Shown piece by piece: positions 31,190-63,252 of a stretch of 64,000 bases of DNA. Each line of letters opens with the position of its first letter. The stretch's first letter is position 1. The translations under genes were made by a program, and so were the position numbers. The notes beneath the pieces are model-generated. The model saw only the letters and a program-made list of their open reading frames with translations. It was not told the DNA's origin and did not search any database. The stretch comes from an uncultured Acidobacteriota bacterium (GTDB taxonomy: Bacteria; Acidobacteriota; Thermoanaerobaculia; Gp7-AA8), in the NCBI GenBank assembly GCA_963822445.1, contig CAWGHO010000002.1, positions 1,696,001-1,760,000 on the forward strand, given 5' to 3'.

Positions 31190-31201
31190 GGGTAACCTTT
31201 C

Positions 31202-32941: not shown

Positions 32942-32956
32942 TTGGAAAGACCTTTC

Positions 32957-33058
32957 TTAGGTGGGGATGTCGAGGCGGGTGCCGCCGCCGGCGCGAGGCG
33001 GTTCCTGAGCCCCCGCAGCGAATGCAGCTGCGAGCAGAGGGAACCCGGTTGTACGCAT
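32957..33058 (-). pseudogene. Collapsed fifth VWA paralog (33-aa remnant)
   Basis: Translates MRTTGFPLLAAAFAAGAQEPPRAGGGTRLDIPT*. This is the paralog N-terminus (MRTIGSLFLAAAFAASGQELPQAGG) joined to the paralog C-terminus (GSTRLQIPT). Confidence 0.8.
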
Positions 33059-33176
33059 TCCCTTATTGTGTCACGCGCTCTCGGGGACGAGCGGTTGTTC
33101 CGCAGGGGAAAGCGGCGGTTTCCGTTGCGCTTTTGTTACGAGGTCGTGCGCACTTCGTTCAGCTCGCTTCGCGTCG

Positions 33177-34886: not shown

Positions 34887-34897
34887 TGTTAGTCCTC

Positions 34898-47214: not shown

Positions 47215-48222
47215 ATGAGAATTTTGTGGCTTTCGCTCGCTCTAGCCAATTCGCTCGCCGCATCGACGGCACTCGCGGACGTCATCACCATCGAGGTTGA
47301 TGGCAGTTCGCTGACGCACGCGCATGGCATCAATGATCTCGACCGCATCGTCGGGTTCCATCATCGCTCCGAGACCGGGACCACCCACTACGCATTCGTG
47401 CGCGAGGCCAGTGGCACGTTCTCCAGCGCCGGCCCGGACCACCCTTCGTTTCCCTGTCCGCCGCTCTGCGACAACGTGAAAGCGCACTCGATCAACAATG
47501 CCGGTGACATCGCTGGCACCTATGGTTCCGGTCTGAACCATTCCTTCATTCGCACCGCGGCGGGTGAGATCACGACGTTCGACGTCGAGGACAGCGCGAA
47601 CACGTTCGCCGACGGGATCAACGAGTCGCTGCAGGTTTCCGGATACTTCGACGACGCTGTCTGTCCGGCCGAGCCGCTGCCCTGTTCGCACGGCTTCATT
47701 CGCAACCCGAACGGCGAGCTCATCATCTTCGACGTGCCCGGAAGCACGGGTACGTTCCCCGGCAAGATCAACAATGCGGGCGACGTCACCGGCTCGTACA
47801 ACGACCTCGAAGGCAATGGGCGCGGATTCATACGGCTGGCGAACAGCCAGACGTTCATCACCTTCGACGTACCGGGTTCCGTCGGTACCGAGGCTCAGGC
47901 GATCAACGACGCCGGGACGGTGACGGGGGCCTACATATCGTTCAACCCGGACATCGGTTACCGGCGGCACGGGTTCGTGCGGTCGGCACTCGGGTTCACG
48001 ACGGTCGACGTGCCCGGCGCGCACGCGACCATCCCCTCGGGAATCAACAACGACGGCGACCTAGTCGGCACGTACGACGTCCTGACCGCCGACGGACGTG
48101 TCACGCGAGGGTTCGTCATCACCGCCGACGACGCTGTCTCCCAGATTCCGACGTTATCCGCCTGGATGGGCATCGCATTGTTGCTGTCCCTGATCGCACT
48201 CGCGGTTTATCGGATCGTCTGA
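47215..48222 (+). CDS. Secreted HAF-like repeat protein with IPTL-CTERM sorting signal
   Basis: Signal peptide; six INxxG/xxG...GF repeats; ends IPTLSAWMGIALLLSLIALAVYRIV. Confidence 0.85.
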   Translation: MRILWLSLALANSLAASTALADVITIEVDGSSLTHAHGINDLDRIVGFHHRSETGTTHYAFVREASGTFSSAGPDHPSFPCPPLCDNVKAHSINNAGDIAGTYGSGLNHSFIRTAAGEITTFDVEDSANTFADGINESLQVSGYFDDAVCPAEPLPCSHGFIRNPNGELIIFDVPGSTGTFPGKINNAGDVTGSYNDLEGNGRGFIRLANSQTFITFDVPGSVGTEAQAINDAGTVTGAYISFNPDIGYRRHGFVRSALGFTTVDVPGAHATIPSGINNDGDLVGTYDVLTADGRVTRGFVITADDAVSQIPTLSAWMGIALLLSLIALAVYRIV

Positions 48223-48477: not shown

Positions 48478-48900
48478 ATGTCCAGCAATCCCGTGGTCCC
48501 GGTCTCGATCTTCAATGCGAACACGACTTCGGTGAACGTCACCGTCAACAACGGTACGCAGTTCACCGTCGACGGCGCGAAGGCGCCGACCTTCTCGCCC
48601 GCTTTCAACAACAGCGCCTGTAGCTTCGCCACGAATCCGTCGGGCAACACGTTCGGCGTCACGGGGACGAACTTCGTCGACATCACCCCCGTCGGGTCGA
48701 ACCAGCCGATCCAGTTCCAGATCAACATCTCCAGCAGCATCCAGGTCACTTCGCTGCAGCTCTACATGTTCTGGGCGAGCCAGACCACCGCCGGCTGGGT
48801 CCTGCTGAACAACGGGCAGATCATCGCCATGGACACGCTCTCCGGCGGCGGCTCGTCGAGCTCGCCGAGCTCGTCGCGGACCACCGCGAAGCGCTACTGA
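48478..48900 (+). CDS. Hypothetical 140-aa Asn/Thr/Ser-rich beta protein, first gene of the operon
   Basis: AAGGAG RBS before MSSNPVV; no signal peptide. Confidence 0.8.
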   Translation: MSSNPVVPVSIFNANTTSVNVTVNNGTQFTVDGAKAPTFSPAFNNSACSFATNPSGNTFGVTGTNFVDITPVGSNQPIQFQINISSSIQVTSLQLYMFWASQTTAGWVLLNNGQIIAMDTLSGGGSSSSPSSSRTTAKRY

Positions 48901-48927: not shown

Positions 48928-51900
48928 ATGAACGGCGGGACACCTTTGCAGGAGATCGCACCCGGTCTGTATGTGATCGGTGTCTCGCCGTCGTCTCCCT
49001 CGTTCTCCTCGCCGCCGGCGACGACGTACGCGTACTACCTCACGCAGGCGGTGCCGTCGCCGGCGGACCCCGCACCCACGCTCGACGACACCTGGACGGA
49101 TGCGGATTACAGCGGCTGGTATCTCTTCCTGATCGACCCCATCGTCGATGCCACGAAGTTCGTTGACGAGGCCCGCTCGCAACTGCCGGCGCTCACCGCG
49201 TCGCCGTCGCAACTGCCGATCGGGATCATCTGGATGCCCGATCCGTCGGACTTCGGCGCCGCGCAGGGACTCGTTCTCTACTCGCCCGCGGGTCAGCCGG
49301 ACCTGCGGACGCTCGGGCCGGGAAGCCCGCCGCCGGTCGCGTTCACCTGGGGAGCGCTGACGCTCACGATCGGCGGCGCGCGTTTCTCGCTGGATACGGC
49401 GGCGAATGCGATCACGATCAGCAGTCCGTCGGGCTCGGCGATCTCGTTGTCGTTCTGTCCGCAGGGCGGCACCGTCCTTCCGTACTCCAACGTACCGGCG
49501 ACGCCGTGGCTCGTCTCGATTCCGCTCACCGGGGACGCCGCGGGCACGCTGGGAATGACGGCAGCGCTGGAGCTCGGCTATCTGGTCGAGACGTTCGGCT
49601 GCGGCTTCCGCTACATCACCGAGTCGAGCGATGACGCGGGGCTGTATTACACGTTCGTTCCTCCCGCTGCGCCGTCGCTCGACGGGACGTTTCTCGGTTT
49701 CGCGCTGCAGTTGCATCCGCTGTTGCCTTGCGACCCCGCGGCGACGCGCCTCGCGTTCGATCTCGCCGGTTCGCCGCCGAACGAATATCAGACGGCGAGC
49801 GCGAACGTCGTGGCGCCGTACTTCCTCACGACGAATGGTGGGTCGTTCAACCTCGTGCCATATGACGTCTCCGCGGACGCGACCCTCGCGCCGCCGGGCT
49901 TCGCATTCTGTCTCGCACCCGGTTCGTCGCCGTCGCCCCAGCTCTACCTCGCGCCGTCGGGCACGTTTCAGGTCTCGTCGTTCAGCTCACCGGGCGAAAC
50001 GGGTGCGCAGTGGCTCTGCGGACTCACGGCGCAGGAGTACCTTCAGATCGAGACGAACGATCTGGTTGCGTTCATCGCGGGCATGCCCGCGTACGCGCCG
50101 GGAGCGGGCAGCGGCCCCGCGGCCGGCCACGGTCCTACGCTCGACGCGACGTTCACCACGTCGTGGCTGCAGTTTCCCGTCGCCTCGTCGATCGGCTCGC
50201 GCTCGTACTTCGGCATGCCCAGCGCATCGATCTATTACGCCGGAATCGGCGACTCGTTCGGCACGCCCGTCGTGTCGAAGCTCGTCACGTTCGCGGACAG
50301 CGCCACCTTTCCGATCGTTCCGTACGGAGGCATCTACGCCAGCGTCGAAGCGGGCGGTGGAGTCCCGGTCTTCAACGCCGGCGTCAGTCCCGTTGCGTTC
50401 GCGAGCTTTGAGTCGCTCGTGCTGAGCAGCGAGAGGCACCTGCGAGCGACGGCCGGCACTCCCGGTCCCGTGTTCACGGTCTCTTCGGCGAACGGTCTGA
50501 CGTCGGCCGGCGAGATCGGCTCGCCGCCGCCGGCGGGCACCGCGCTCACGCCGCAGGGTTTCGTCGTCCAGTTGAATGCCGGCGGAACGTGGGCCCAGCT
50601 GGATCTGGCGTTGAGCCCGGAGACGGCCGGACAGTATCTGAGCTTCAACGGAACGCCCACCGTCGTCGAGCCCGCGATCGCGAACGTCGTTCTGCAGACG
50701 GAGCTCTTCCTCGTCGTCACGAATCCCGCGAGCGTTGGCAACTTCAGCAACGAGATCAGCGTCGGAGGATTCAACTTCACGCTCGGCATCCAGCCGTCGT
50801 CGCCGCATGCGGATGACGGCACGCTGCTGATCTTCAAGTTCAACACGACCGCATCGCTGGCACAGCTCGCGGAGCGCACGGATCTCTGGGCGGACACGGC
50901 GACCTTCGTAACGGACGTCGCCGCCGCACAGCAGCAGATCCGCGAGGCCATCGAAGTGGCGCGGAACTATCAACGCGGCGCGGGCGCCAGTCCTTCGTCG
51001 GGCAATCCGTTCGCGTACTTCCTTTCGATCCTCGACGTCCCGGGCTGGACCGGCATCCTCGCGCTGAACTGCGCGATCGACGGCAACGGGATGCCCGAGG
51101 ATTTCCAGATGCTCCTCGGGGGAATCCAGGGGCAGTTGCGCGCCCACCATCTCGGAGTCGAGCGCAATCGCGTGACCCAGGATCCCGATGGCGGCGCGAG
51201 CCTGCAGCAGAGCTCTCTGTTCGGCGTCATCCACTACGCCAGTCCATCGTCGGCAGCCTCGCCGGCGGAATCGCCGGCGCCGCTCGCCTACGGAGTGGAA
51301 ACGCTCACGGTCGTCTTCCAGAACTCGCAGATCACGCAGTTCAACGTCGTCGTCGGGCTGACGATCAACGAGCTGTTCGGACGCGAGACCGCGCTCGTCG
51401 TCACGTCGCTCTCGCCGCCTCCGCGGAACACGCTCGAGATCGCGGGGCAATACCAGGTCACCGGTTCCATCGGCGTCGTCACGTTCCAGACGGACCAGGC
51501 GTTCATCTACGACTTCCCCGTGCCGGCCGGCGCGGCGCGCGTGCTGGATCACGTCCTGTTCGACAGCGCATCGCTCGTTCCTGTTTCGTCGGTGCCGCTG
51601 TCGGGCGGCGGGACGCAGATGACGGCTCAGTTCTCACTGGCCGGCGGGATCTGGTTCAGCGCCCAGCCGTTCCCGGGCTCTGGAGACTTCGATCTTTTCT
51701 CATACGGCAACGGCGTCGCGGCGGACGGCGGACTGTCGTTCACGAACATGACCATGCAGATCGTCTTCACCCTCGACTCTGCGGGCGCGATGGTCCCCGG
51801 CAGCCAGACCGTGACGTTCGTGCCGTCGCTCCTCACGATCCTGCCGTCGCCGGGCGCCATCCGCTCCGGCAGCCTGCTCGGTGCGCTGCCATTGCAGCTC

Positions 51901-52506
51901 TCGCAATTCCTGGAGTCGCCGGCGGGGATGACGACATCCTCCCTCGGCGCAAACGTCGTGAACTGCCTGCAGCTCGAAGGACAGCCGTCGAGCAGCTCGC
52001 CGCCGCTGTCGCCTTCCGAGTCGTTGCCGGCATCGCCGCCGGCCGTGTCGCCCGCGACCTCGCCGTACGTCACCGTCGCGCCGACGTTCGCGCTCGAGTA
52101 CGACCTCCCGCTCGGTTCCCTCGGCTCGCTCTCCGGTCCGAACGCCGGCCTGATGGCGAAGCTCTTTCTCGGGTGGGGGCCGTCGACGGTCATGCCCGGC
52201 AGTGACGCGGCCGCGGTGTTCGTGCAACTGCCGCAGCTCTCCGCCGGTCTCGGCGGCGGCTTCAATCTCCAGGGAATCCTGAAGACCGTCTTCGGCGACG
52301 CGAACCTGCTCGCGGTCGACGTCGACGGACTGCCGGTGTACGCGCTGCTCTTCAACAACGTGCAGCTCAGCGTGCTCGGTTACGCCTTCCCTCCCGGCGT
52401 GATCGTCGATTTCCTCCTCTTCGCCGGGCAGGCCTCGCAGAACGTGAACACCAACACCAGCAACCTCGCCTGGTTTCTCGGCGTGCTGCCACAGGGGTCG
52501 CCGTAA
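48928..52506 (+). CDS. Large hypothetical protein (1192 aa), Ser-Pro-rich, Lys-poor
   Basis: Long ORF with genome-typical codon usage; alternating beta-strand patterns; no signal peptide. Confidence 0.9.
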   Translation: MNGGTPLQEIAPGLYVIGVSPSSPSFSSPPATTYAYYLTQAVPSPADPAPTLDDTWTDADYSGWYLFLIDPIVDATKFVDEARSQLPALTASPSQLPIGIIWMPDPSDFGAAQGLVLYSPAGQPDLRTLGPGSPPPVAFTWGALTLTIGGARFSLDTAANAITISSPSGSAISLSFCPQGGTVLPYSNVPATPWLVSIPLTGDAAGTLGMTAALELGYLVETFGCGFRYITESSDDAGLYYTFVPPAAPSLDGTFLGFALQLHPLLPCDPAATRLAFDLAGSPPNEYQTASANVVAPYFLTTNGGSFNLVPYDVSADATLAPPGFAFCLAPGSSPSPQLYLAPSGTFQVSSFSSPGETGAQWLCGLTAQEYLQIETNDLVAFIAGMPAYAPGAGSGPAAGHGPTLDATFTTSWLQFPVASSIGSRSYFGMPSASIYYAGIGDSFGTPVVSKLVTFADSATFPIVPYGGIYASVEAGGGVPVFNAGVSPVAFASFESLVLSSERHLRATAGTPGPVFTVSSANGLTSAGEIGSPPPAGTALTPQGFVVQLNAGGTWAQLDLALSPETAGQYLSFNGTPTVVEPAIANVVLQTELFLVVTNPASVGNFSNEISVGGFNFTLGIQPSSPHADDGTLLIFKFNTTASLAQLAERTDLWADTATFVTDVAAAQQQIREAIEVARNYQRGAGASPSSGNPFAYFLSILDVPGWTGILALNCAIDGNGMPEDFQMLLGGIQGQLRAHHLGVERNRVTQDPDGGASLQQSSLFGVIHYASPSSAASPAESPAPLAYGVETLTVVFQNSQITQFNVVVGLTINELFGRETALVVTSLSPPPRNTLEIAGQYQVTGSIGVVTFQTDQAFIYDFPVPAGAARVLDHVLFDSASLVPVSSVPLSGGGTQMTAQFSLAGGIWFSAQPFPGSGDFDLFSYGNGVAADGGLSFTNMTMQIVFTLDSAGAMVPGSQTVTFVPSLLTILPSPGAIRSGSLLGALPLQLSQFLESPAGMTTSSLGANVVNCLQLEGQPSSSSPPLSPSESLPASPPAVSPATSPYVTVAPTFALEYDLPLGSLGSLSGPNAGLMAKLFLGWGPSTVMPGSDAAAVFVQLPQLSAGLGGGFNLQGILKTVFGDANLLAVDVDGLPVYALLFNNVQLSVLGYAFPPGVIVDFLLFAGQASQNVNTNTSNLAWFLGVLPQGSP

Positions 52507-52844
52507 TGAGCTCTCCTCTCGATGTCAACGGCGTGATCGCGTGGCTGAACGGGACGTTCGGCCTGTCCATGCCGGTGCTGCCGTTTTCCGCGCCCTGGCT
52601 CGCGCCGTTCGCCGGCCTCTGGAATCTGCTCGTGCCGGGATCGCTGCCAAAGCCGGGCGATCCCTTCCCCTGGACGATCCCCGTGTCGGGCACGTGGACC
52701 GTGCCCGTCGGCGGCACGTTCGTGCTCGAGAACATCACCATCGTCGTCGCCGCCGGGCCGGCGACGAAGGGATTCCTCGCGCGCGTGAAGCGCGCCCTCA
52801 CCCGCCCGAAGACCAAACGAAAGCGAGCCAACCCGGCGCCGTGA
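52506..52844 (+). CDS. Small hydrophobic Pro/Trp-rich protein with basic tail
   Basis: TAATG coupling to the upstream gene; ends ARVKRALTRPKTKRKRANPAP. Confidence 0.7.
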   Translation: MSSPLDVNGVIAWLNGTFGLSMPVLPFSAPWLAPFAGLWNLLVPGSLPKPGDPFPWTIPVSGTWTVPVGGTFVLENITIVVAAGPATKGFLARVKRALTRPKTKRKRANPAP

Positions 52845-52899
52845 ACGGCGTCTCGCACTGCTACGTCCACCGCCTTCATTTCACTCGCGAACAAGGAGA

Positions 52900-53358
52900 A
52901 TGATCATGCCCTCACCAACCCCTCCCGGCACCAGCGTTTCCGTCTCGGCGACCCTGCAGTTCTCGGGTCAGGACGTCGTCATCAGCAGCGGCGACATCTC
53001 CAATGCCTCCCAGGCGCTCTCGAACCTCGTTTTCTCGCTCACGGCACCGGTCACCCTCGGTTCGTTCGACAACTTCATCGATGCGCTGCACGCCGACCTC
53101 GGCGTGCCGCTCACGTCCTCCGAGATCACCAGCGCGATCGATGAGATCCCGAGCTCGCCGGCCGTGCTCGGTGCGATCAAGAACGACCTGCTGGCGATCG
53201 TGAGCACGCCGCTCATCCTCAACACGCTCAACGTCAACACTGCCGCCGGGGCGTATTCGGTCGGCGTTTCGTTCCCGGTGCACATCCCGATCACGAGCTT
53301 CCTCTCGTTCAACGGCATCGGCGTCCTCGTCTCCTACCAGTCGGCCAGTCCCGCATAG
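52900..53358 (+). CDS. Hypothetical acidic protein (~150 aa)
   Basis: AAGGAG RBS; the start may be 52906. Confidence 0.8.
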   Translation: MIMPSPTPPGTSVSVSATLQFSGQDVVISSGDISNASQALSNLVFSLTAPVTLGSFDNFIDALHADLGVPLTSSEITSAIDEIPSSPAVLGAIKNDLLAIVSTPLILNTLNVNTAAGAYSVGVSFPVHIPITSFLSFNGIGVLVSYQSASPA

Positions 53359-53365
53359 GCGAACG

Positions 53366-56300
53366 ATGAGCACCGACGTCATTCTGCAGCTCAGCGGCAC
53401 CCTCTTCGGCGTCGATCTCGACGCCGAAGTGGTGGTGGCGGGAGGTCCGCTCTCCTTCCGCCTGGCGCCCGCGCAGCCGATTCCGTTCGAGGAGATCTGG
53501 AACGCGATCGACACCGAGCTGCAGAACATCGCCGGCTTCAGCCTGCCGGACATCGCCGGCGGTCCGTGGGGCGGACTGTTCGGCGCGGGCGGTACGGTGA
53601 TGCCGACGCTGTGGATCGCGCCTTCCGGTCCGGGCCCTGCCGCGGGCACGTATCTCCAGCTCGATTTCTCGGAGCCGATCCAGATCGGCGGAACGTTCTC
53701 GACGCCCATCGGCACGATCACCATCGAGCCGAACTTCCAGGTCTGGAGTCTCTACTTCGGCTACGACCAGGCCACAGGGCCGGGCCTGGCCATTCGCGCG
53801 AAGATCTCGACGTCGAGCGCCGGCAGCGCCGCCACTTCCGACAAGGCGCAGATCGTCAGCTATCCGTTTCCCGTGCCGGTGCAGCCGTCCTCGAACGGGT
53901 TCCAGGTGAACTACCTCGGGCTCGGACAGCGCATCGGGCCCACCGTCAACGTCACCGGAGACGATCCGCTCGCCGCGATCTTCCAGCAGTTGGAGACGGA
54001 GCTCGTCGGCACCGATCCGCGGACGATCCTCACGACGCTCGCGAATGATTTCTACCAGCCGGATCGCGACTGGTTCATTGCCGCGGACATCTCCCTGCGT
54101 GGGTTCCGCGTGCGGATCCTCTTCAACGATCCGGTGCTTTACGGGCTGGAGATCACGGTCAGCTCGTCTCCGCCAACGTTCTTTTCCGGCCTGCTCTTCG
54201 AGATCCTCTACCAGAAGCTCGGCCCGAATCTCGGCGTTTACTACGGTGCGCTCACGCTGCCGATGGCTATGCGCCGCATCGTGCTCGACGGCGTGATCCT
54301 GATCCTTCCGGGCTTCTCGATCTGGGTCTACACCAACGGCGACTTCCGCGTGAACGTCGGCTGGCCCGTCGGCACGAGCTCGATCGGCGTGCAGGTCGGT
54401 CCGCTCATCGGCTGGGGCGGTTTCTATTTCGCGAAGCTGAGCAGCGGAGACAATCCGGGCGCGCAGCCGAGCGTCGATTACAACCCCATCCTCGCGTTCG
54501 GTCTCGGCGTAACGCTGTCGCTCAACGAGAGCTTCAACGCCAGCATCTTCAGCGCGACGATCTCCGTCTCGCTCTCGGCCACGTTCCAGGGATTGCTCGC
54601 GTGGGAGGCTGGCAACTCGATCTCCGGTCCACCCGATCACTACTGGTTTGCCGGCACCGCGGGGTTGTCGGTGCTCATCCAGGGAACGGTCGACTTCGCG
54701 ATCATCAAGGCATCGGTCACGATCAGTTTCACAGCGAACCTCGGCGTCGCCTTCGAGACCGGTTACCAGACCCTCGTCGCGGTCTCGGCGTCGGTCTCCG
54801 TCTCCGTCTCCATTCACGTCATCTTCTTCACGATTCACCTCTCGTTCAGCACGACCGTGAGCACGCAGTGGGTGATCGGCAGCGGCACCGGCATCGCGTC
54901 GGTCAACGGTCCGCAGGCGCCCGGCCTCGCCATCACTGGCGGCTTCGGGGCGCCCGATCCCGTGCACGTGGAAGCGCTCCGCTCGGCGCGGCTACTCATG
55001 GATCGCATGGCGGCAACGCCGCGGCGCGCCGCGAGCCCCACGGATCCAGTCACGCGGCTCGATGAAGCGAGCCGCATCGCCGCGGTGTCGCCCATCTCGA
55101 TCCCGGTGCAGTTCGTTCTCCAGCCGACAGTCGTCTACGACAGTCCTCCTTCGTTCAACGTCATCGCGTCGTTGCTGCTCGAGTCTCCCGGGCCCGGCTC
55201 ATCGCCACCGGCGTCGCCGGCGATGGGAACGCCGTTCGAGAGATTGATCGTGGCGATGGTGGACTGGCTTCTGGCCATGTTTCCGACGGGCACGCTCAGC
55301 GAGCGTTTCGCACAGGTCGTGTCGGCCCTCGGGTCAGGCAATGAAGCGCCGTTCGACGGAGACTGGACCGCGTTTCAGTCGAGTCTTCAGACGTTCCTGC
55401 AGAGTGCCCTCACGTTCGACGTTACCGCCGCGGGAAGCGACTCGCCGTCCGGCGGCATCGACAGCGTGGCCGTCTTTCCGATGCTGTACGGCCTCCAGCT
55501 CGCGTACGTCGACGAGAACGGTGACCCGCAGACGATCGACTTCGACACCTTCAATCCGACTCCCGCGGATTACCCCACCGCGGTGAGCCTGTACTTCGCC
55601 GACTCGCAGTGGAGCGGCAGTCCGGCCGGCAACGGCGGATTCACTTCCCCGTCGCTGAGCATGGCCACGTTCACGCTCGCCGACTACTTCCTCATGCAGG
55701 CGCGCAATGCCGCGAACGCGCTGTACACCGCGGCCACGGCGTACGAGCAGAACGCGACGAACGTTTTCCTCGCGCAAGTCGATGCATTGCGCGCCGGCGG
55801 TGGCTCGCAATGGGACCTCGTCGACGCCACCACCGAGCACGCGGCGGACCTCGTCGGCGGGAACGAGCTCGAAACGCTGCTTCAGCAATTCGACTACGCG
55901 TCCGCCGCGGGGATGGGCTCGCGATTCCTTCTCAACGGACTGCAACTGCCGGTGCCGGCCGACGTGCCGCCCGATCCGACGTTCGAGAACATGAAGAGCG
56001 TTCCGACGGCGGGCCTGTACATCCTCACCGGGCAGCAGTACGCAATCGCGCAGGGCGCGACCACGGCAACCGGGACGTTGAGTCTCGATCCCTCCGCCCC
56101 TTCCGGCTGGATCACGTTCGACGGCGGTTCCACCGGCGCCGTTTCGACGATCGAGCTTCCGTCGTCGATTCCGCCGTCGCCGCTGCCGCAGTGGCAGACG
56201 GGGACACAGAGCCCGTCCGCCGGCACTGCCGTATTCAACGCGCTGCCCGCGGTCACGTCGCATCCGCTGTACGTCTCGCTGAAGAACCAGATCGCGTGGG

Positions 56301-59300
56301 ACGCGAGCGGCATGGCGCAGACGATTCTCGCGCTCCCTGCGCAAGTGAAGCAGCTCCTCGCCGGCGGCGTGCAGCTCCAGATCACCGCCGATCCGCCGGC
56401 GAGCACGAGCTCCGGGTCGCCGGTGGCCGCGCCGCCGCTCATTGCCGCGACTCCGGCGCTGCTCATCCGCATCACGCTGACGCAGGTGCCGTCGAACAGC
56501 ACGAACAGCGTGGCGCCCGGCTCGCCGACGGGATCGTCGCCGCAAGCGGAGCCGCAGCAGTATCTGCCGAACATCTACCAGGTCACCGGGGCCGACGAAG
56601 AGACGCGCGACCGGATCTTCGCGGCGCTGCAATCGGGTCTTTCGGGCGCGTCAATCTCGCTGCTCTATCCCACGTCGGGCAACTCGCCCGGGCCGTCGGG
56701 ACTCGTCTCCGAGGGACTGGGCATCGACGTGATGCTCGTCAAGACGAATCTCTCGACGCTGAACCAGGTCGGCGACGTCGTCATGGCTTTCCGCAAGTCC
56801 GCGGCGACGATGAACGACGACGCATCCTCAGCCACGGTCACCGAGGTGGTCGGGTTCCTCGAGTTGCTCTGGCAGGTGAGCGTTGTCAACGCGCCCGGAT
56901 TCTTCCTCTTCTATGAGAACGACCAGGGCCAGGACCTGCCGTCCTCGCTCTTCTCTTCGGCGGGTACGCAAGGTGGCGGGACGGCGCAGTTCGACGTGCT
57001 CGTGCAGTTCGCGGCGGTGCCCGCGGAGACGGTCAGCGTGCCGCAGTACGCGAGCTGCATCTTCATCGAGGCGCAGAGCGGAAGCGATCCGCTGTACGCC
57101 GGCGTGCTCGATGCGGATGGAGCGCCGCTGCCGCAATGGTTCCCCACGATGCCGCCGGGCAACGTCGGCTTCACCGTGGAATGGGAGCCGCCGGTGACCA
57201 GTCCGAACGATCTCGTGCCGGTGGGTGAGCTCTATCACCTCCTGCAGTACCAGGTGCAGGGAAGCGGCGGCTACATGGAGTCGGTGTGGAGCCTGCCGGT
57301 CGGCCCGATGCAGAACAACGGCGTATTCGCGTCGGCGTCGTCGCCGGAGCTCTGGCAGTACCTCACCAACGTACCGGTGTATCTCGCTTACGGCACGTCG
57401 CCGGCCGAGGCGCCGAGTCCATATGCGATCGTGGGAACGACGGTCGGCGTCGATCTGCGCATCGCCGATGTCTATGGCGATGTGTTGCCGTCGACGTACG
57501 ACGCCACCTTTGCTCCGCTTTATCAGGATGCGCTGATCTCCATCGCGCAGTGGCCCGGCCTGTACGTGCAGTACCGCTTTGTCGCGTCGAGCGGCAACGG
57601 GCAGGCGGTGCTCGAGATCACCGCGACGTTCGATCCCGATTCGGTCGTGCCGCCGGCGGCGTCACCAGCCTCGCCGCAGGGCTCGTTCAACGTGCAGCAG
57701 CAGTGGCAGACCGCGCTGTCGCGTTACGACCTGATCCTGTATCAGCTCGCGGATCCGAATGTCACCGTGTCCGTTGCCACGAGCGTGGCGGGCGGCCCGG
57801 TCGGCGATCCCACTGCGATCGCATCGTCGCTGTACGAGTTTGCTGTCGCCATCGAAGAAGAGATCGCGGTGGCGATGTCGTCGCCGGACGCGGCCTCACA
57901 GGTGACGCGCGTGATCTCGATCGACGTCCCGTTCGCAGCCGTCGTCGCGCAGACCGTCGACATCTTCCAGGTCGGCGTGACGATGACGTTCGCGCGCCAC
58001 GCGGCACTCGTCGATCCGATCGCCGCGGCGAACCTGCCGGGAGCGGTCAGCGTCGCGTACGACGTCCCGGCCGATCTCACTGGTGACGCGGCGTCGCCGA
58101 ACGTCACCCTTTTCGCCCAGGACTTCGAGGCGGCCTTCGCGGGCTTCGACGGTGCCTCCGGCGAGCTCAAGCTCGCGCAACGCTCCGGCGTCTCCACCGG
58201 CTCCTCGGCACCGGTCAGCGAATCGCTCTGGGCGGTGCGCTTCAGCGCCACCGACGGCATTGCACTGTCGATGCAGCCGGGCCTCGCGTACTTCGCGCTG
58301 CAGCCGCTGTCGACCGAGCCGCTCAGCGGTGTGGCCGCGGGCCAGACCTGGTCGAACGTAGACATCGATGCATGGGCACAGCAGTTCCTCGCCGCATACG
58401 ACGCGTTTCTCTCGCCGCAGATGGCGGTGGCGATCGCCGTGCTCGACGCGCAGGACGAAACGAGTGCCTATGAGTCGCTCACCACGACGAAGCAGCAGCT
58501 CGCGAACACGGTTCCCCTCGGCCTGACGCAGATCCTCGCGGCGCAGGCAGGGCTCGGCGATCTGACCGCCGCGCAGACGCGGCTGACGAACGCGATGCTC
58601 ACGCAGCTCGGCAGCGCATTCTCTGTCAGCACGATCGTGCAGGTGCCGGCGACGGTGAGTGTGGCGGCGATGGCCGAGAGTCCCGATCAGACTTCGCAGC
58701 CACCGCAGGTCTACGGCGCTCTCGTTCCGGTCACGGCTGCCAATTCGTCGACGGCATCGACCTACTCGTTCTCTCCGGGAGAAGTCGTGCTCGCGCCGGG
58801 ATCGCAGTGGATGACGTCCCTGCTCACCGTCGCGCAGCCCGGCGAACAGTCGTCGCTTTCGATCGGACTGGCGTATCAGATCAGCTATCTCCAGCACGAC
58901 TTCCTCGGCAACGAAGCGGAGCTCGGCTACACACCCTCGTCGTGGCTCAAGTTCGTCGTGCCCGCCGTGCCGTTGCTCCAGCTTCCGATCACAGCAGCGG
59001 CGGACATCCCGATTCCGCTGATCTTCGAGCCGTCCGCGCCTTCGCTCGTGGTGCAGAGCGCGACCGAGGCTCCTCCGGGATCGCCGGTCAGCCCGAACGA
59101 CATCCAGGGCGAGATCGGGCAGATGCTGCAGTGGAACTACGCCGTCGACATGGCCCTCGCGCTCGAGGCGCAGGACGAGCTCCATTTCGACGTCACGTAC
59201 AACGTTCCCGCCGCACCGAGCGTGCTGACGGCGATGACCGCAACCTCGACCGCGCCGCTGGCGGGCCTGTTCAACGCACTGGCCGAGTTCAGGCAGTGGT

Positions 59301-60295
59301 ATGCCGCGAACTCGCCCGGCTTCGGGCAGATCATCGGTGGAGTCCTGCCGTCGACCGGCAATCCTCCGGGCTCGCCGAGCGTCGCGCGTACGCTCATCGA
59401 CGGCTTCGTGAGTGCGGCGGGCAACGTCGCCTCCGCATGGGCCGCGCTTTATGCACCGCCCGCCTTCCTCGCGGAGTTCGCCGAGGAACAGCCGATCGTC
59501 GACAGCTTCTACCTCACCACCGGCGGCACGACGACGATGCAGCTCTTCGGACAAACGTCGTCGCAGGCGAATCCGCAGTACTGGCCGTCGCTGACGTTCG
59601 CGGACGGCACCACCTGGACGCCCGATGGCGCGGATGCCGTTCCGACGGGCTCGGGCGAAGTCTGGTGGGTGGTCTCGAAGACATTCGCGAGCGTTCCCGA
59701 TCTCTCCACGCTCACGATCGAAATGGGACCGCTGAACATGCTCGATCGGCAGACAGCGATCCTCTCGTCGTACGTGGTGCGCAATGCGACCCTCGCCGGA
59801 CAAGGCGCGAGTCCCGTCTTCGTCTACACGACGCAGGAAGTCACATTTCCGTCCGCGCTGGTCCCGCTGATCAGCCGTGCTTCGATGCCGGTGCTGGAGC
59901 CGGCGGCGACGCTCGCCGACACGCTGACCGACGTTCTCGCTCCGATTGCCGCGCCGGGCGCGCTCCTTGGTACGTACGCGCGGATCGCCGTGAGCTACGC
60001 ATACGCGATCGCCGAGCAGCCGAGCGGTACGCCGCTCATGGTCACGACGGCGGTGCTGCTCGTCGACGACGTCGACCTTGCGGCCAGTCCCGGCGCTCCC
60101 GCGACCATCGCCGCATCGATGGCCGGCCTGATCGAGTCGTGGCACCAGACCTTCGCACCGCCTTCGACCGGCGCGCTGCTGACGCTCGCGCTGACCCTCT
60201 TCGCCAGTGCGCAGCAGTACCCGATCATCGAGATCGATCAGATCCCCATCGACGTGAGCGCCGTGGATCACGCCTGGTGGCAGGGAGGAACATGA
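53366..60295 (+). CDS. Giant hypothetical protein (2309 aa) with a DUF6603-like N-terminal beta region
   Basis: YLGLGQR, FNDPVLYGL, FEILYQK, IWVYTNGDFRVNVGWP, GGFYFAKLS, GTVDFAIIKASV pattern recalled from DUF6603-type proteins (not searched). Confidence 0.88.
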   Translation: MSTDVILQLSGTLFGVDLDAEVVVAGGPLSFRLAPAQPIPFEEIWNAIDTELQNIAGFSLPDIAGGPWGGLFGAGGTVMPTLWIAPSGPGPAAGTYLQLDFSEPIQIGGTFSTPIGTITIEPNFQVWSLYFGYDQATGPGLAIRAKISTSSAGSAATSDKAQIVSYPFPVPVQPSSNGFQVNYLGLGQRIGPTVNVTGDDPLAAIFQQLETELVGTDPRTILTTLANDFYQPDRDWFIAADISLRGFRVRILFNDPVLYGLEITVSSSPPTFFSGLLFEILYQKLGPNLGVYYGALTLPMAMRRIVLDGVILILPGFSIWVYTNGDFRVNVGWPVGTSSIGVQVGPLIGWGGFYFAKLSSGDNPGAQPSVDYNPILAFGLGVTLSLNESFNASIFSATISVSLSATFQGLLAWEAGNSISGPPDHYWFAGTAGLSVLIQGTVDFAIIKASVTISFTANLGVAFETGYQTLVAVSASVSVSVSIHVIFFTIHLSFSTTVSTQWVIGSGTGIASVNGPQAPGLAITGGFGAPDPVHVEALRSARLLMDRMAATPRRAASPTDPVTRLDEASRIAAVSPISIPVQFVLQPTVVYDSPPSFNVIASLLLESPGPGSSPPASPAMGTPFERLIVAMVDWLLAMFPTGTLSERFAQVVSALGSGNEAPFDGDWTAFQSSLQTFLQSALTFDVTAAGSDSPSGGIDSVAVFPMLYGLQLAYVDENGDPQTIDFDTFNPTPADYPTAVSLYFADSQWSGSPAGNGGFTSPSLSMATFTLADYFLMQARNAANALYTAATAYEQNATNVFLAQVDALRAGGGSQWDLVDATTEHAADLVGGNELETLLQQFDYASAAGMGSRFLLNGLQLPVPADVPPDPTFENMKSVPTAGLYILTGQQYAIAQGATTATGTLSLDPSAPSGWITFDGGSTGAVSTIELPSSIPPSPLPQWQTGTQSPSAGTAVFNALPAVTSHPLYVSLKNQIAWDASGMAQTILALPAQVKQLLAGGVQLQITADPPASTSSGSPVAAPPLIAATPALLIRITLTQVPSNSTNSVAPGSPTGSSPQAEPQQYLPNIYQVTGADEETRDRIFAALQSGLSGASISLLYPTSGNSPGPSGLVSEGLGIDVMLVKTNLSTLNQVGDVVMAFRKSAATMNDDASSATVTEVVGFLELLWQVSVVNAPGFFLFYENDQGQDLPSSLFSSAGTQGGGTAQFDVLVQFAAVPAETVSVPQYASCIFIEAQSGSDPLYAGVLDADGAPLPQWFPTMPPGNVGFTVEWEPPVTSPNDLVPVGELYHLLQYQVQGSGGYMESVWSLPVGPMQNNGVFASASSPELWQYLTNVPVYLAYGTSPAEAPSPYAIVGTTVGVDLRIADVYGDVLPSTYDATFAPLYQDALISIAQWPGLYVQYRFVASSGNGQAVLEITATFDPDSVVPPAASPASPQGSFNVQQQWQTALSRYDLILYQLADPNVTVSVATSVAGGPVGDPTAIASSLYEFAVAIEEEIAVAMSSPDAASQVTRVISIDVPFAAVVAQTVDIFQVGVTMTFARHAALVDPIAAANLPGAVSVAYDVPADLTGDAASPNVTLFAQDFEAAFAGFDGASGELKLAQRSGVSTGSSAPVSESLWAVRFSATDGIALSMQPGLAYFALQPLSTEPLSGVAAGQTWSNVDIDAWAQQFLAAYDAFLSPQMAVAIAVLDAQDETSAYESLTTTKQQLANTVPLGLTQILAAQAGLGDLTAAQTRLTNAMLTQLGSAFSVSTIVQVPATVSVAAMAESPDQTSQPPQVYGALVPVTAANSSTASTYSFSPGEVVLAPGSQWMTSLLTVAQPGEQSSLSIGLAYQISYLQHDFLGNEAELGYTPSSWLKFVVPAVPLLQLPITAAADIPIPLIFEPSAPSLVVQSATEAPPGSPVSPNDIQGEIGQMLQWNYAVDMALALEAQDELHFDVTYNVPAAPSVLTAMTATSTAPLAGLFNALAEFRQWYAANSPGFGQIIGGVLPSTGNPPGSPSVARTLIDGFVSAAGNVASAWAALYAPPAFLAEFAEEQPIVDSFYLTTGGTTTMQLFGQTSSQANPQYWPSLTFADGTTWTPDGADAVPTGSGEVWWVVSKTFASVPDLSTLTIEMGPLNMLDRQTAILSSYVVRNATLAGQGASPVFVYTTQEVTFPSALVPLISRASMPVLEPAATLADTLTDVLAPIAAPGALLGTYARIAVSYAYAIAEQPSGTPLMVTTAVLLVDDVDLAASPGAPATIAASMAGLIESWHQTFAPPSTGALLTLALTLFASAQQYPIIEIDQIPIDVSAVDHAWWQGGT

Positions 60296-63252
60296 GCGAG
60301 GGCGGCCTTCCCGTCACACTGGCCGGCTTCCGCAATTTCCACGAGGGGAAGTCGATCGTCGTGTGCGGGTGCGGGTCATCGCTGTCGGCATTCACGCGGC
60401 CCGAGCGCTTCGTCACGATCGGCGTGAACGACGTCGGCCGTCTCTTTCAGCCCGATTACCTGGTCGTGCTCAATCCGCGGCAGCAGTTCACCGGCGATCG
60501 CTTCCGCCACGTCGAGGAAAGCCGGGCCAAAGCGATCTTCACGCAGCTCGATCTCCGGCTCCGTCACCCGCACGTCGTCCGCTTTCGCCTCGGAAAGCGC
60601 GGAGGCACGGAGCCCGTCGATCCCAACGTGCTGCACTACACGCGCAACTCGCCGTACGTCGCGCTTTGCCTGGCGATGCACATGGGAGCGAAGCGGATCG
60701 GTCTGATCGGCGTCGATTTCACCGACCATCACTTTTTCGGGCGGACCGGACGTCATTCACTGGCGCGCGAGCTGCCGCAGATCGACTCCGAATACCGGCG
60801 CCTCGGCGAGGTCGCCAGGCGGCTCGGCATCGAGGTCTTCAACCTCAGCGAATCGAGCCGGATCACGGCCTTTCCGAAGATCTCCGCCGATGCCTTCGCG
60901 CGACTCGACGCGCCGCCGTTGCGCATCGTCTCTTACGCAACGACACCCGTCGCCGGCGTTCCGCCCGTGCTCGCGAGGTGCATCGCCGAGCGGACGCCGC
61001 ATGAGGGCCGTGCCGTATGGGCCCGCGCGGGCTACGGCAACGGCGTCGTGTTCGACGGCGACGTCGAGTACACCCGCTCCTCGCGCCAGGCGAACGCGCT
61101 GCTCGACGCCGCGGACGTCGTGATCGTGCACAACGGCAAGGTCGATGCGCGTCACGTCGCGCTGATCGACAGCAAGCCGGTCGTCACGCTCGCGCACAAC
61201 TACAAGTGGAACGTGGACGAGACGTTCGTCCAGCGCGGAATGCCCGGGCTGGTCGTCGCGCAGTACCAGGCGACGCTCCCGGAGTTCGCATTGTGGACGC
61301 CGGTGCCGAATCCGATTCCGTTCTGGGAACCGGCCTACGCGGCGGGCGAGAAGGGTCCGCGGATCACCATCGCCTTCACGCCGTCCGGAAAACACGAGCG
61401 CTATCCGGAAGACCATCACCTGTACTGGCACGCGAAGGGATATCGCTCGACGATGGCCGTTCTCGAGCGGCTCGCCGCGCGGCGCGGCATCGCCCTCGAG
61501 GTCATTCGAAACGCGCAGATCTCGCACGCGCGCTCGATGGAGATGAAGCGCCGCGCGCACATCGTGATCGACGAGTGCGTGACCGGCAGCTATCACCGCA
61601 ACAGTCTCGAGGGACTGGCCGCCGGCGCCGTCGTCGTGAACGGCGTGGGACGCCTGGCCGGCGTGGCCGAATTGCTCCGTGACGTGAGCGGATCCGAAGA
61701 AGTGCCGTTCGTCGCCGCGGGTCTCGACGACCTGGAGGCTGTTCTCGAGAAGCTGATAGCGCGCGGCGCCGCCGCGCTTGCCGAGGAAGGTGCTCGCGGC
61801 CGGCGATGGCTCGAAGCGCATTGGGATTTCGGGCGGCAGTGGAGCCGCTTCTGGCAGCCCGCGATCGAGACTGCGCTGCAGCAGCGCGGTGTGGTGCAGG
61901 CCTCCGGCCTGCCTTCCGGCGGTGAGAAAGAGGCAGGCTGGAAGCCCGCACCACACGGACACGGGATCGTCATTCCATTCGGCGGGCGCGACCGGCTGCC
62001 GCTGCTCGAGCGCACGCTCCTCGCGGTCGCCGCGAGCGGCGCCAGCGAAGTGATCGTCGTCGAAATGGCGGAAGACGAGCCCTGCGCGCGCGACGCGGTC
62101 GCCGCCGCCGGTTTCCAGCACGTCTTCATCCGCGACGTCTTTCATAAGACGCGTGCCATGAACGCCGGCGCGGCGCGCATCACCAGCGAACGTTTCTTCT
62201 GGCTCGACGCCGACATCGTCGCGACTCCGCCGTTCTTCGCGAATGCCGTCGCCGAAATGGACGAGCGGAAACTCGATTGCCTCGTGCCCTGGACCACGGT
62301 CGGTTACCTGACCGGCGAGGACACGGCAGCCGTTCTGGCCGAATCGAAGTCCGTCGACGAATGCAAACCGCAGACGACGTACCGCTCTCCGCGCGCGAGC
62401 CGCGGCGGCGTCGTCCTGGTGCGCACGTCGTTCGTGCGCGAGTACGGCGGGATGTGCGAAGAGTTCCGGGGATGGGGAGCGGAAGACGATGCGTGGTTTG
62501 CGAAAGCGAGATGCCTCGGCACCGCCGACGTCACCCGCCGCCGCGACCAGCACGTGTACCACCTTCATCACGAGAACAGCGGCGGCGCCCGTCCCGGCGC
62601 GGCGCTCGCTCTGAATCCGCATTACCGGCGCAACGTCGCGTTGTTTCGTGAGGTGCGATCGCTTCGCACGCGCGAGCGTTTCCTGCAACGGTTTCCCGCC
62701 GTGCCCCTTCGCGCCGAGGGAGATCCGCCCTGGGGCGGCGAGGCGGCTCGGCCCGCGGAACCTCGCGCGACGGCCGTGCTTCCGGCCGGCCGCCAGGGGC
62801 CGCGGCTGAACCTTGGCTGTTGCGACGATGTGCGCCGTGGGTTCGTGAACGTCGACCGCGTCGCCGGCAGGGGAGTCGATGCCGTCGTCGACCTCGCGGA
62901 ACCGTGGCCCTGGAACAGCGATTCGGTCGACGAGATCCGCGCCTGGGACATCATCGAGCACCTCCCCGACAAGGTGCGCACCATGAACGAAATGTGGCGC
63001 GTGCTACGGCCCGGCGCGACGGCCGAGATCGCCGTCCCCACCACCGACGGCCCGGGCGCGTTTCAGGATCCGACGCACGTCTCGTTCTGGAACCGGCGCA
63101 GCTTTCTCTACTACGAGCACGGCAATCCGTATCGCGAGCGGTTCGCGCGCAGCTACGGCATCGAGGCGCGGTTTCGCGTGCGCTCCGAGCGGACCGAGAG
63201 CTCTGTCGATGGCCCGCGGCTGCACATCGTGCTGGAGGCGGTGAAGCCATGA
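60292..63252 (+). CDS. Multidomain enzyme: Maf/DUF115-like + GT4-like + GT2/GT7-like + class I SAM methyltransferase
   Basis: GGAGG RBS and ATGA overlap. Motifs: VCGCGSSL/IGVND/MGAKRIGLIGVDF; IVIDE..SLEGLAAG; WLDAD/FRGWGAEDD; LNLGC/WDIIEHL. Confidence 0.88.
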   Translation: MSEGGLPVTLAGFRNFHEGKSIVVCGCGSSLSAFTRPERFVTIGVNDVGRLFQPDYLVVLNPRQQFTGDRFRHVEESRAKAIFTQLDLRLRHPHVVRFRLGKRGGTEPVDPNVLHYTRNSPYVALCLAMHMGAKRIGLIGVDFTDHHFFGRTGRHSLARELPQIDSEYRRLGEVARRLGIEVFNLSESSRITAFPKISADAFARLDAPPLRIVSYATTPVAGVPPVLARCIAERTPHEGRAVWARAGYGNGVVFDGDVEYTRSSRQANALLDAADVVIVHNGKVDARHVALIDSKPVVTLAHNYKWNVDETFVQRGMPGLVVAQYQATLPEFALWTPVPNPIPFWEPAYAAGEKGPRITIAFTPSGKHERYPEDHHLYWHAKGYRSTMAVLERLAARRGIALEVIRNAQISHARSMEMKRRAHIVIDECVTGSYHRNSLEGLAAGAVVVNGVGRLAGVAELLRDVSGSEEVPFVAAGLDDLEAVLEKLIARGAAALAEEGARGRRWLEAHWDFGRQWSRFWQPAIETALQQRGVVQASGLPSGGEKEAGWKPAPHGHGIVIPFGGRDRLPLLERTLLAVAASGASEVIVVEMAEDEPCARDAVAAAGFQHVFIRDVFHKTRAMNAGAARITSERFFWLDADIVATPPFFANAVAEMDERKLDCLVPWTTVGYLTGEDTAAVLAESKSVDECKPQTTYRSPRASRGGVVLVRTSFVREYGGMCEEFRGWGAEDDAWFAKARCLGTADVTRRRDQHVYHLHHENSGGARPGAALALNPHYRRNVALFREVRSLRTRERFLQRFPAVPLRAEGDPPWGGEAARPAEPRATAVLPAGRQGPRLNLGCCDDVRRGFVNVDRVAGRGVDAVVDLAEPWPWNSDSVDEIRAWDIIEHLPDKVRTMNEMWRVLRPGATAEIAVPTTDGPGAFQDPTHVSFWNRRSFLYYEHGNPYRERFARSYGIEARFRVRSERTESSVDGPRLHIVLEAVKP
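61889..61956. repeat. 26-bp imperfect inverted repeat inside the coding sequence (same family as 21567-21631)
   Basis: GTGTGGTGCAGGCCTCCGGCCTGCCT ... AGGCAGGCTGGAAGCCCGCACCACAC, 23/26 complementary. Confidence 0.82.

Follow-up and report, generated by a model that had tools for sequence, protein, structure and literature searches.

The 64,000-nt stretch of DNA analysed here (the window; contig CAWGHO010000002.1 of assembly GCA_963822445.1, positions 1,696,001 to 1,760,000) comes from an uncultured Acidobacteriota bacterium and carries an operon encoding two giant proteins, p1192 and p2309, the small proteins p140, p112 and p152, and the glycosyltransferases (GTs) gt986 and gt466 (Table 1). 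Both giants contain far more Ser-Pro (SP) dipeptides than their composition predicts, and among related loci this excess accompanies the presence of the transferase genes. On the sequence evidence we incline, if only slightly, to the view that SP, mostly in the form [G/A/S]-S-P, would be the acceptor motif for stepwise soluble O-glycosylation by the transferases that end the same operon, with sugars probably attached at Ser-Pro.

Ser-Pro excess and its co-occurrence with transferase genes

An earlier note on this DNA had counted about 29 SP and about 6 Thr-Pro (TP) dipeptides in p1192 and about 33 SP in p2309, and had quoted SP-bearing strings from p1192 (QGSP at the end), p112 (MSSP), p152 (MPSP and SASPA) and p140 (SSSSPSS). 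Recounting gave exactly 29, 6 and 33, and all the strings were present. The 29 SP pairs of p1192 compare with 11.8 expected (z 5.5, observed/expected ratio (O/E) ∼2.5) and the 33 of p2309 with 18.2 (z 4.1, O/E ∼1.8), and in neither case did any of 500 composition-preserving shuffles reach the observed count. TP was at or below expectation in both proteins (6 versus 8.4 in p1192 and 8 versus 15.0 in p2309). The proteome used for comparison consisted of 4069 open reading frames (ORFs) of the 6.0-Mb genome, called by us as the longest non-overlapping frames together with a filter on third-position GC content (GC3), over which O/E was 1.03 for SP and 1.14 for TP. By Poisson p, p1192 ranked first (1.2e-5) and p2309 ninth (1.4e-3) among these ORFs, and they ranked first and third for SP among the 18 ORFs of at least 300 amino acids (aa) that are comparably rich in Ser and Pro; two other Ser/Pro-rich giants of the genome (2804 and 2448 aa) gave an SP O/E of 0.72 and 0.68. 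The shuffle and proteome comparison proposed in the earlier note leaves an SP excess above what Ser and Pro content predict.

Two simple origins of the excess were considered and rejected. Co-clustering of Ser and Pro does not account for it, as SP remained 1.86-fold over-represented in p1192 and p2309 together under a local-composition control (21 residues; the reverse dipeptide PS, 1.34-fold), and 25 SP pairs compared with 10.9 expected when only the coil of an AlphaFold2 model of p1192 was considered. A TCG-CCG codon-hexamer effect was likewise discarded, since the SP serines use both TCN and AGY codons (TCG, AGT, AGC, TCT and TCA), so that the signal lies at the amino-acid level. As a separate observation on codon choice, AGT encodes 4 of the 29 serines before Pro and 1 of the 94 elsewhere in p1192 (7 of 33 and 9 of 190 in p2309), and AGC and TCC are avoided for Ser before Pro in the region 48928–60295.

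Taken alone, the small proteins showed no significant SP excess (p112, 1 versus 0.8 expected; p152, 3 versus 2.0; the p140 frame, 2 versus 1.3), and a negative control of the transferases and neighbouring genes, in which numbers are small, was near expectation (pooled SP 29 versus 22.7). The earlier claim that SP recurs across all proteins of the operon can be kept for p1192 and p2309 and, by way of the homologs described below, for p112 and p152, and is not supported for p140.

Homologs of p1192 are rare in the protein database searched (four at E 1e-3 among 7999 scored candidates). The scans yielded 71 related loci, with 15 from a scan of species-representative genomes and 56 from metagenome contigs scanned with a p2309 alignment; the named genome loci belong to Acidobacteriota, Gemmatimonadota, a Chthoniobacterales metagenome-assembled genome (MAG), Alphaproteobacteria, Saprospiraceae and Chlorobiota/Kapaibacterium. 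Mapping by tblastn revealed that the p1192–p2309 pair, with small ORFs in between, is widely conserved. A match to gtN, the N-terminal domain of gt986, directly follows the p2309 homolog in 12 distinct loci (L002, identical in sequence to L018, and L003, L004, L005, L007, L008, L011, L019, L022, L024, L025 and L026) and was not found by tblastn in any other locus with more than 800 nt downstream. In L022, L025 and L026 the gene with the gtN match holds glycosyltransferase or methyltransferase domains according to Pfam. The transferase-bearing loci range in GC content from 0.51 to 0.69, and the named ones come from Acidobacteriota and Alphaproteobacteria; L008 belongs to a named isolate, a strain of Mangrovicella endophytica.

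For the comparison of loci with and without transferase, fragments below 800 aa, loci cut downstream, the duplicates L018 and L070, and L009, which has different GTs, were left out. With the window included, the p1192 homologs of transferase-bearing loci (n = 11) gave an SP O/E of 1.50–2.51 (median 1.70) versus 0.17–1.60 (median 0.68) for those of transferase-less loci (n = 23), and the p2309 homologs gave 1.42–2.41 (median 1.80, n = 13) versus 0.20–1.32 (median 0.78, n = 30). The Mann–Whitney p values of 6e-6 and 3e-7 overstate the evidence, as the loci are related. These results bear out the expectation in the earlier note that homologs from GT-less loci should be low in SP, the two medians of 0.68 and 0.78 lying below the whole range with transferase (1.42–2.51).

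The SP excess is Ser-specific and directional. In the pooled 24 proteins of transferase-bearing loci, SP (630 versus 335 expected, 1.88) was the highest of all X-P and S-X dipeptides, while TP stood at 0.87 and AP and GP were likewise at or below expectation; PS was 1.10 globally, and under the local-composition control SP remained at 1.78 and PS at 1.05. The pooled 53 proteins of transferase-less loci contained 427 SP versus 552 expected (0.77). No glycosyltransferase was found with Pfam in the flanks of 10 transferase-less loci (L010, L012, L013, L015, L016, L028, L031, L035, L036 and L037), and a gtN profile which finds gtN in five other genomes had zero matches in the whole assemblies of L010, L012, L015 and L016.

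In a FastTree tree of 47 near-full-length p2309 homologs the transferase-bearing loci form a single clade, at the base of which L009 stands (support 0.82), and their gain of the transferase therefore counts as one event. Besides L009, which is from a Gemmatimonadota MAG, the SP-rich clade includes L006 from the Chthoniobacterales MAG, where the downstream side is cut. Inside this clade lies L028, which is sister to L022 (support 1.0) in a group supported at 0.967 and has no GT recognized by Pfam in the 10 kb downstream, a region occupied by trypsin, subtilase, GMC oxidoreductase and TRAP transporter genes and a regulator. Its p2309 homolog has an SP O/E of 0.68 and carries SP at only 1 of 25 recurrent columns (a column counting as recurrent if 5 or more of the 12 clade members have SP there), and in at least eight of these columns Pro is kept and Ser is replaced by Gln, Thr, Arg, Lys, Gly or Ala. 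Likewise, its p112 starts with MSTVN and its p152 is without the tag. To judge from gene content and alignment, L028 adds a second contrast, independent of the first, that goes the way predicted.

The p2309 homologs of the 12 clade members contain 161 SP columns, of which 99 are occupied in one sequence only and 14 are common to at least 8 sequences, and pairs of members share SP sites at 0.37 for an identity of 0.45, yet every member has 25–40 SP sites. Such conservation of SP density while the sites turn over argues for selection on the motif and not for simple inheritance.

Sites and candidate transferases

Over the SP-rich set, the position preceding SP is occupied by Gly at 159 of 625 sites (2.9-fold enriched), followed by Ala and Ser, and GSP, ASP and SSP together make up 58% of the sites. 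Pro is enriched at positions −3, −2, +4 and +5, while Lys, Arg, Trp, Tyr and Leu are depleted; no comparable context was found around SP in the transferase-less homologs. The AlphaFold2 model of p1192, built from 26 sequences (predicted local distance difference test (pLDDT) 80, predicted TM-score (pTM) 0.62), places 27 of the 29 SP serines in coil versus 52 of the 94 other serines. Its fold found no clear match in the PDB with Foldseek (TM 0.05–0.13, probability at most 0.18), and a wide VIA-align search gave a best Z of 4.8, effectively for residues 725–979, which is below the stated noise level. ESM Atlas returned unnamed clusters, one of them auto-named ‘putative Hemagglutinin’, with DUF6603 as a weak lead (0.79; 12% of one cluster), and these hits were not used; the open-access literature searched held no paper on DUF6603.

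At the chain ends, x-S-P precedes the (T)VN motif in the p112 homologs of 10 of 12 GT-associated loci (not in L004 and L011) and in none of 7 GT-less ones. All 12 GT-associated p152 homologs have SP ahead of their first conserved strand, as does 1 of the 8 GT-less ones, and the chain ends in …SP or …SPA in 6 of these 12 and in none of the 8. The last 12 residues of p1192 include SP in the window, and those of its homologs do so in 5 of 11 transferase-bearing loci and in 0 of 24 transferase-less loci. Homologs of p140 do not share its SSSSPSS tail. Hence the clustering of SP in loops and termini described earlier is retained for the loops of p1192 and for the terminal tags of p112, p152 and p1192, and is not supported for the p140 tail.

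The gtN domain is better conserved, at 68% mean column identity over 13 loci, than the structural proteins at ∼45%. Searches of the PDB by sequence or with a profile of 13 homologs gave no match to gtN. Its AlphaFold2 model (pLDDT 81, pTM 0.80) matched best in Foldseek to the flagellin glycosyltransferase Maf (PDB 5mu5; E 8.4e-7, probability 1.00, TMq 0.54), followed by CstII/CstI chains (E 7e-5 to 3e-3, TMq 0.44–0.49) and MptE HPPK (5e-4). In this predicted structure gtN has the fold of the Maf/CstII nucleotide-sugar domain, and it is of the same fold class as the CstII/CstI sialyltransferases (CAZy family GT42). Its conserved G-x-G-x-S-L and G-V-D-F…H-F-F segments presumably resemble CstII motifs; CstII differs in acting on lipooligosaccharide, not on protein, and shares 13–16% identity with gtN.

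The second domain of gt986 had no Pfam match in the window copy even at E 10. Homologous stretches of 52–70% identity are present in L002/L018, L007, L008, L011, L019 and L022; Glyco_trans_1_2 was recognized in L025 (387–528) and L026 (377–523), two loci that tblastn with the second domain did not match. Farther along gt986, the GT2 domain was identified by Pfam Glycos_transf_2 (PF00535; residues 559–670, 26.8 bits versus a cut-off of 23.3), with Glyco_transf_7C at 29.6 bits in the same region, and the methyltransferase domain by Methyltransf_11 (21.4 bits versus 21.2) and by sequence matches to PDB methyltransferases (E 5e-4). In gt466, PF00535 matched two stretches with 59.9 bits. By these family matches the adjacent enzymes are real glycosyltransferases; the ‘adjacent transferases’ of the earlier note are thus confirmed by Pfam, and one of their domains is predicted to fold like a known protein O-glycosyltransferase.

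If SP is the acceptor motif, the substrates would be p1192, p2309, p112 and p152, modified in exposed loops and at chain termini. Modification would be cytoplasmic, stepwise and driven by nucleotide sugars, because no signal peptide is visible in the structural proteins or the transferases on inspection by eye, and the transferases matched no membrane-protein or lipid-carrier family in Pfam and NCBIfam scans; the same scans of the operon and its flanks revealed no gene for a membrane O-oligosaccharyltransferase or for lipid-carrier glycan assembly among the operon genes. Addition of the first sugar to Ser would fall to a single domain, for which the Maf/CstII-like gtN is the best candidate and, by its model, the most likely, if not a secure, initiating enzyme; the glycan would then be extended and capped by the other gt986 domains (the second, the GT2 and the methyltransferase domain) and the two GT2 domains of gt466. 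CMP-Kdo (Kdo, 3-deoxy-D-manno-oct-2-ulosonic acid) is conceivable as donor, because the genome encodes one KdsB-type cytidylyltransferase and a clostridial Maf can transfer Kdo, according to the available parts of PMC11339370. Selection would keep the SP density while single sites turn over, and the cassette and its enzymes would move together between phyla. As a tentative extension, which we regard as possible and would not press, the operon may represent a mobile, self-contained O-glycosylation module in which a cytoplasmic transferase resembling Maf, to which extending and methylating domains are fused, recognizes [G/A/S]-S-P at dozens of loop and terminal sites of a hitherto undescribed assembly of giant proteins, and in which enzyme, substrates and sequon density co-evolve and move between phyla.

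Alternatives and known systems

Several observations weigh against glycosylation at SP. The association rests on about two evolutionary events, the gain at the clade base and the loss in L028, and the many loci are therefore not independent; moreover, the contig of L028 breaks off on the upstream side, so that a relocated GT is conceivable. L009 is SP-rich (1.67 and 1.55), has the tags and shows SP at 6 of the 25 recurrent columns. It has two GT2 genes upstream that lack specific similarity to gt986 or gt466, and a gtN homolog was not found in its assembly, the completeness of which is not established; gtN may therefore not be the SP-directed enzyme. Among 401 genomes sampled from the phylum, 5 encode an enzyme of the gtN type; one of these is the genome of the window, and the other four carry no p2309 homolog anywhere. 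In two genomes without the cassette the enzyme ends an operon for an extracellular contractile injection system (eCIS), and its neighbours are not clearly SP-enriched. The TM-scores of gtN are moderate (0.54 with Maf, 0.48 with CstII), and it fails the Pfam model MptE-like (PF01973, DUF115), which matched residues 123–144 at E 0.0025 with 18.0 bits versus a cut-off of 34.6. No nonulosonic-acid synthase was found in the genome, both NeuB-family candidates being rejected as 3-deoxy-D-arabino-heptulosonate 7-phosphate synthases. In the p1192 model many SP pairs mark the exact end of a β-strand, which would fit a purely structural role as well. We also count on this side that gene calls and start codons are our own. 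Consequently, the O-glycosylation proposed in the earlier note is favoured by the tracking of SP with the transferases, the loss in L028 and the Maf-like fold, and is weakened by L009, the eCIS contexts, the few contrasts and p140.

The strongest alternative, which we nevertheless hold to be unlikely, is that SP is a structural habit of one clade, whose loops grew longer by Gly/Ser/Pro-rich segments that terminate strands, and that the transferases were acquired in the same ancestor for another purpose, for instance to make a glycan or to modify a different target, so that their co-occurrence with SP would reflect shared ancestry and not function. This would suit the confinement of the transferase-bearing loci to a single clade, the position of many SP pairs directly after a β-strand and the two- to threefold over-representation of SP sites in clade-specific insertions (columns gapped in most outgroup sequences), and it is compatible with gtN-type enzymes that function in other gene contexts and with L009, which keeps SP although gtN was not found in its assembly. 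It accords poorly with L028, which lost both transferase and SP and kept the fold and often the Pro, with a density that is held in every member while sites turn over, and with the restriction of the excess to Ser when TP, AP and GP are at or below expectation. Furthermore, the short terminal tags of p112 and p152 have no obvious structural role, and the operon contains no flippase, polymerase or exporter for a polysaccharide.

Ser-Pro is also the minimal site of Pro-directed kinases and of Ser-hydroxyproline (Ser-Hyp) glycomodules, and SP could accordingly mark a modification for which the neighbouring transferases are not responsible, either phosphorylation of Ser by such kinases or hydroxylation of Pro with subsequent glycosylation of Hyp, as known from plant extensins and arabinogalactan proteins. 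A Ser/Thr kinase gene does lie ∼6 kb downstream in L025. We rate such modifications as quite improbable: no kinase, phosphatase or 2-oxoglutarate-dependent oxygenase domain was recognized in any of the operon genes, SP richness goes with the transferase genes, and TP is depleted (0.87), whereas Pro-directed kinases accept both Ser and Thr. The phosphorylation that the earlier note offered as an alternative accordingly finds no support, with no kinase recognized in the operon by Pfam or NCBIfam. Chance, or a compositional artefact of Ser-rich (∼10%) and Pro-rich (8–9%) proteins in a genome of 64% GC, is hardly credible given that the shuffles never reached the counts, the proteome stands at 1.03, the local-window and coil-only controls keep the excess, the other Ser/Pro-rich giants lie at ∼0.7 and homologs over the GC range of 0.51–0.69 show the same excess.

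Among known systems the putative glycosylation at SP comes closest to Maf enzymes, which O-glycosylate Ser/Thr of flagellin in the cytoplasm and have no known sequon, as far as the available parts of PMC11339370 and PMC12645811 state. The Maf of Magnetospirillum (5mu5) is the best structural match of gtN, which also gives a weak MptE-like/DUF115 signal, and like the process proposed here the Maf reaction is soluble, takes place in the cytoplasm independently of lipid and modifies Ser/Thr of a protein of the same cell. In contrast to Maf, gtN is below the Pfam threshold and fused to putatively GT-B-like, GT2 and methyltransferase domains; it adjoins cassette or eCIS genes with no flagellin or flagellar genes nearby (scans of the operon and its flanking genes gave no flagellar family), its genome lacks a nonulosonic-acid synthase for a CMP-nonulosonic donor, and [G/A/S]-S-P is indicated as sequon where none is known for Maf.

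PglL, PglS and TfpO prefer Ser in Ala/Pro-rich disordered segments, with WPAAASAP as glycotag, in the available parts of PMC12645811. They resemble the present case in serine specificity and low-complexity Ala/Ser/Pro context, but are membrane enzymes that transfer a lipid-linked glycan en bloc in the periplasm, and their acceptor Ser precedes Ala-Pro and not Pro. Cytoplasmic glycosylation is also carried out by HMW1C on the HMW1 adhesin, by TibC/AAH on autotransporters and by GtfA/B on serine-rich repeat proteins; here, too, a dedicated transferase lies beside a very large substrate of which many sites are modified before export, while the enzyme families, acceptor rules (NXS/T or Ser in repeats) and substrate families are others. 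In plant Ser-Hyp glycomodules and mucin-type sites of polypeptide N-acetylgalactosaminyltransferases near Pro, an exposed, extended Ser next to Pro is a glycosylation signal, as would be the Ser adjoining Pro in exposed segments here; those systems differ in their eukaryotic secretory-pathway enzymes and in the need for a prolyl hydroxylase, none of which was found among the operon genes. No relevant paper on a bacterial Ser-Pro sequon or on glycosylated eCIS parts was found in the open-access literature searched.

By kind, the best-supported reading would be dedicated protein glycosylation in a variant form, distinguished by a new substrate family and a putative sequon. If the more tentative reading as a mobile module is true, gtN would be the first enzyme of the Maf type for which a sequon is defined and whose substrate is not flagellin. 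The absence of a recognized sequon for Maf limits site prediction and glyco-engineering. Comparative genomics alone points here to a short motif, to a set of candidate enzymes and to natural substrates of small size, p112 and p152 with their single terminal tags, and gives initial access to two giant proteins that are widespread and unannotated.

Operon organization and neighbouring genes

The seven genes of Table 1 are, by their stop/start overlaps (TAATG between p1192 and p112, ATGA between p2309 and gt986 and again between gt986 and gt466), predicted to be a single translationally coupled operon. Scans against Pfam, NCBIfam and PHROGs assigned p140, p1192, p112, p152 and p2309 to zero families.

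Table 1. Genes of the operon and domains of gt986, in window coordinates.
Feature	Position	Strand	Description and basis
p140	48478..48900	+	140 aa; first cassette gene; ORF listing, and homologs upstream of p1192 homologs in related loci
p1192	48928..52506	+	Giant β-rich protein, 1192 aa, 29 SP; C-terminus QGSP
p112	52506..52844	+	Small protein; N-terminal M-S-S-P tag, then conserved (T)VN motif
p152	52900..53358	+	Small protein; starts MIMPSP (SP ahead of first conserved strand), ends SASPA
p2309	53366..60295	+	Giant protein, 2309 aa, 33 SP
gt986	60292..63252	+	Four-domain transferase, 986 aa; GC3 frame plot, translation, junction sequence, Pfam
gtN (gt986 residues 1–235)	60292..60996	+	Maf/CstII-like predicted fold; candidate protein O-glycosyltransferase
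gt986 second domain	60997..61926	+	Putatively GT-B-like, labelled from homologs only
gt986 GT2 (GT-A) domain, residues 559–761	61966..62574	+	Pfam
gt986 methyltransferase domain, residues 862–950	62875..63141	+	Pfam, PDB sequence matches
gt466	63249..64649, past the window end at 64000	+	466 aa, two GT2 domains; GC3 frame plot, Pfam

Beyond the window end follow p195, a p140 paralog, a 457-aa protein, an extracytoplasmic function (ECF) sigma factor and a 274-aa ORF for which no family match was found. p195 (L001:4887-5474, equivalent to window 64887-65474) thus lies downstream of the transferases, and its residues 71–184 match the p140 homologs. The order p195, ECF sigma factor gene and 274-aa ORF is repeated in L018.

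With regard to the gtN-type genes outside the cassette, a gt986 homolog is the last gene of the eCIS operons L083/L084 (genome G137) and L081/L082 (G147), its gtN being 60–68% identical. These operons include genes for an AAA ATPase, eCIS_core, CIS_tube, Phage_base_V, DUF4280, gp25 and DUF6519, and neither genome has a p1192 or p2309 homolog. In genome G279 a 539-aa ORF (L087:6043-7662, minus strand) with 20% Ser and 17% Pro contains 50 SP versus 18.4 expected; it is located ∼6 kb from the gtN-type gene on the opposite strand, has no Pfam match and may be a spurious frame. The window's own genome has two eCIS_core matches on another contig (G000:C3:327325-327552 and C3:1111926-1112150), far from the operon.

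The p2309 homolog was read as two or three ORFs in L003, L005, L011 and L072, which may be due to frameshift or assembly error or to a real split. LysM domains were detected in distant p2309 relatives of 3000–4000 aa (L043, L044, L045, L051, L052 and L062; E 7.5e-28 to 1.9e-6), a hint of cell-wall association, and are absent from the window's p2309 and from the deepest-branching 3200-aa forms.

Upstream of the operon, window positions 47215-48222 (plus strand) encode a 335-aa protein that begins with a signal-peptide-like sequence and is hydrophobic at its C-terminal end; it gave sub-threshold matches to DUF3466 and to a ‘midcut-by-XrtH’ model. Three tandem paralogous ORFs of 582, 579 and 679 aa with similar C-terminal ends occupy positions 29441-35216 on the minus strand, and the first two of them have signal-peptide-like N-termini (MRTALAL… and MRTILAL…).

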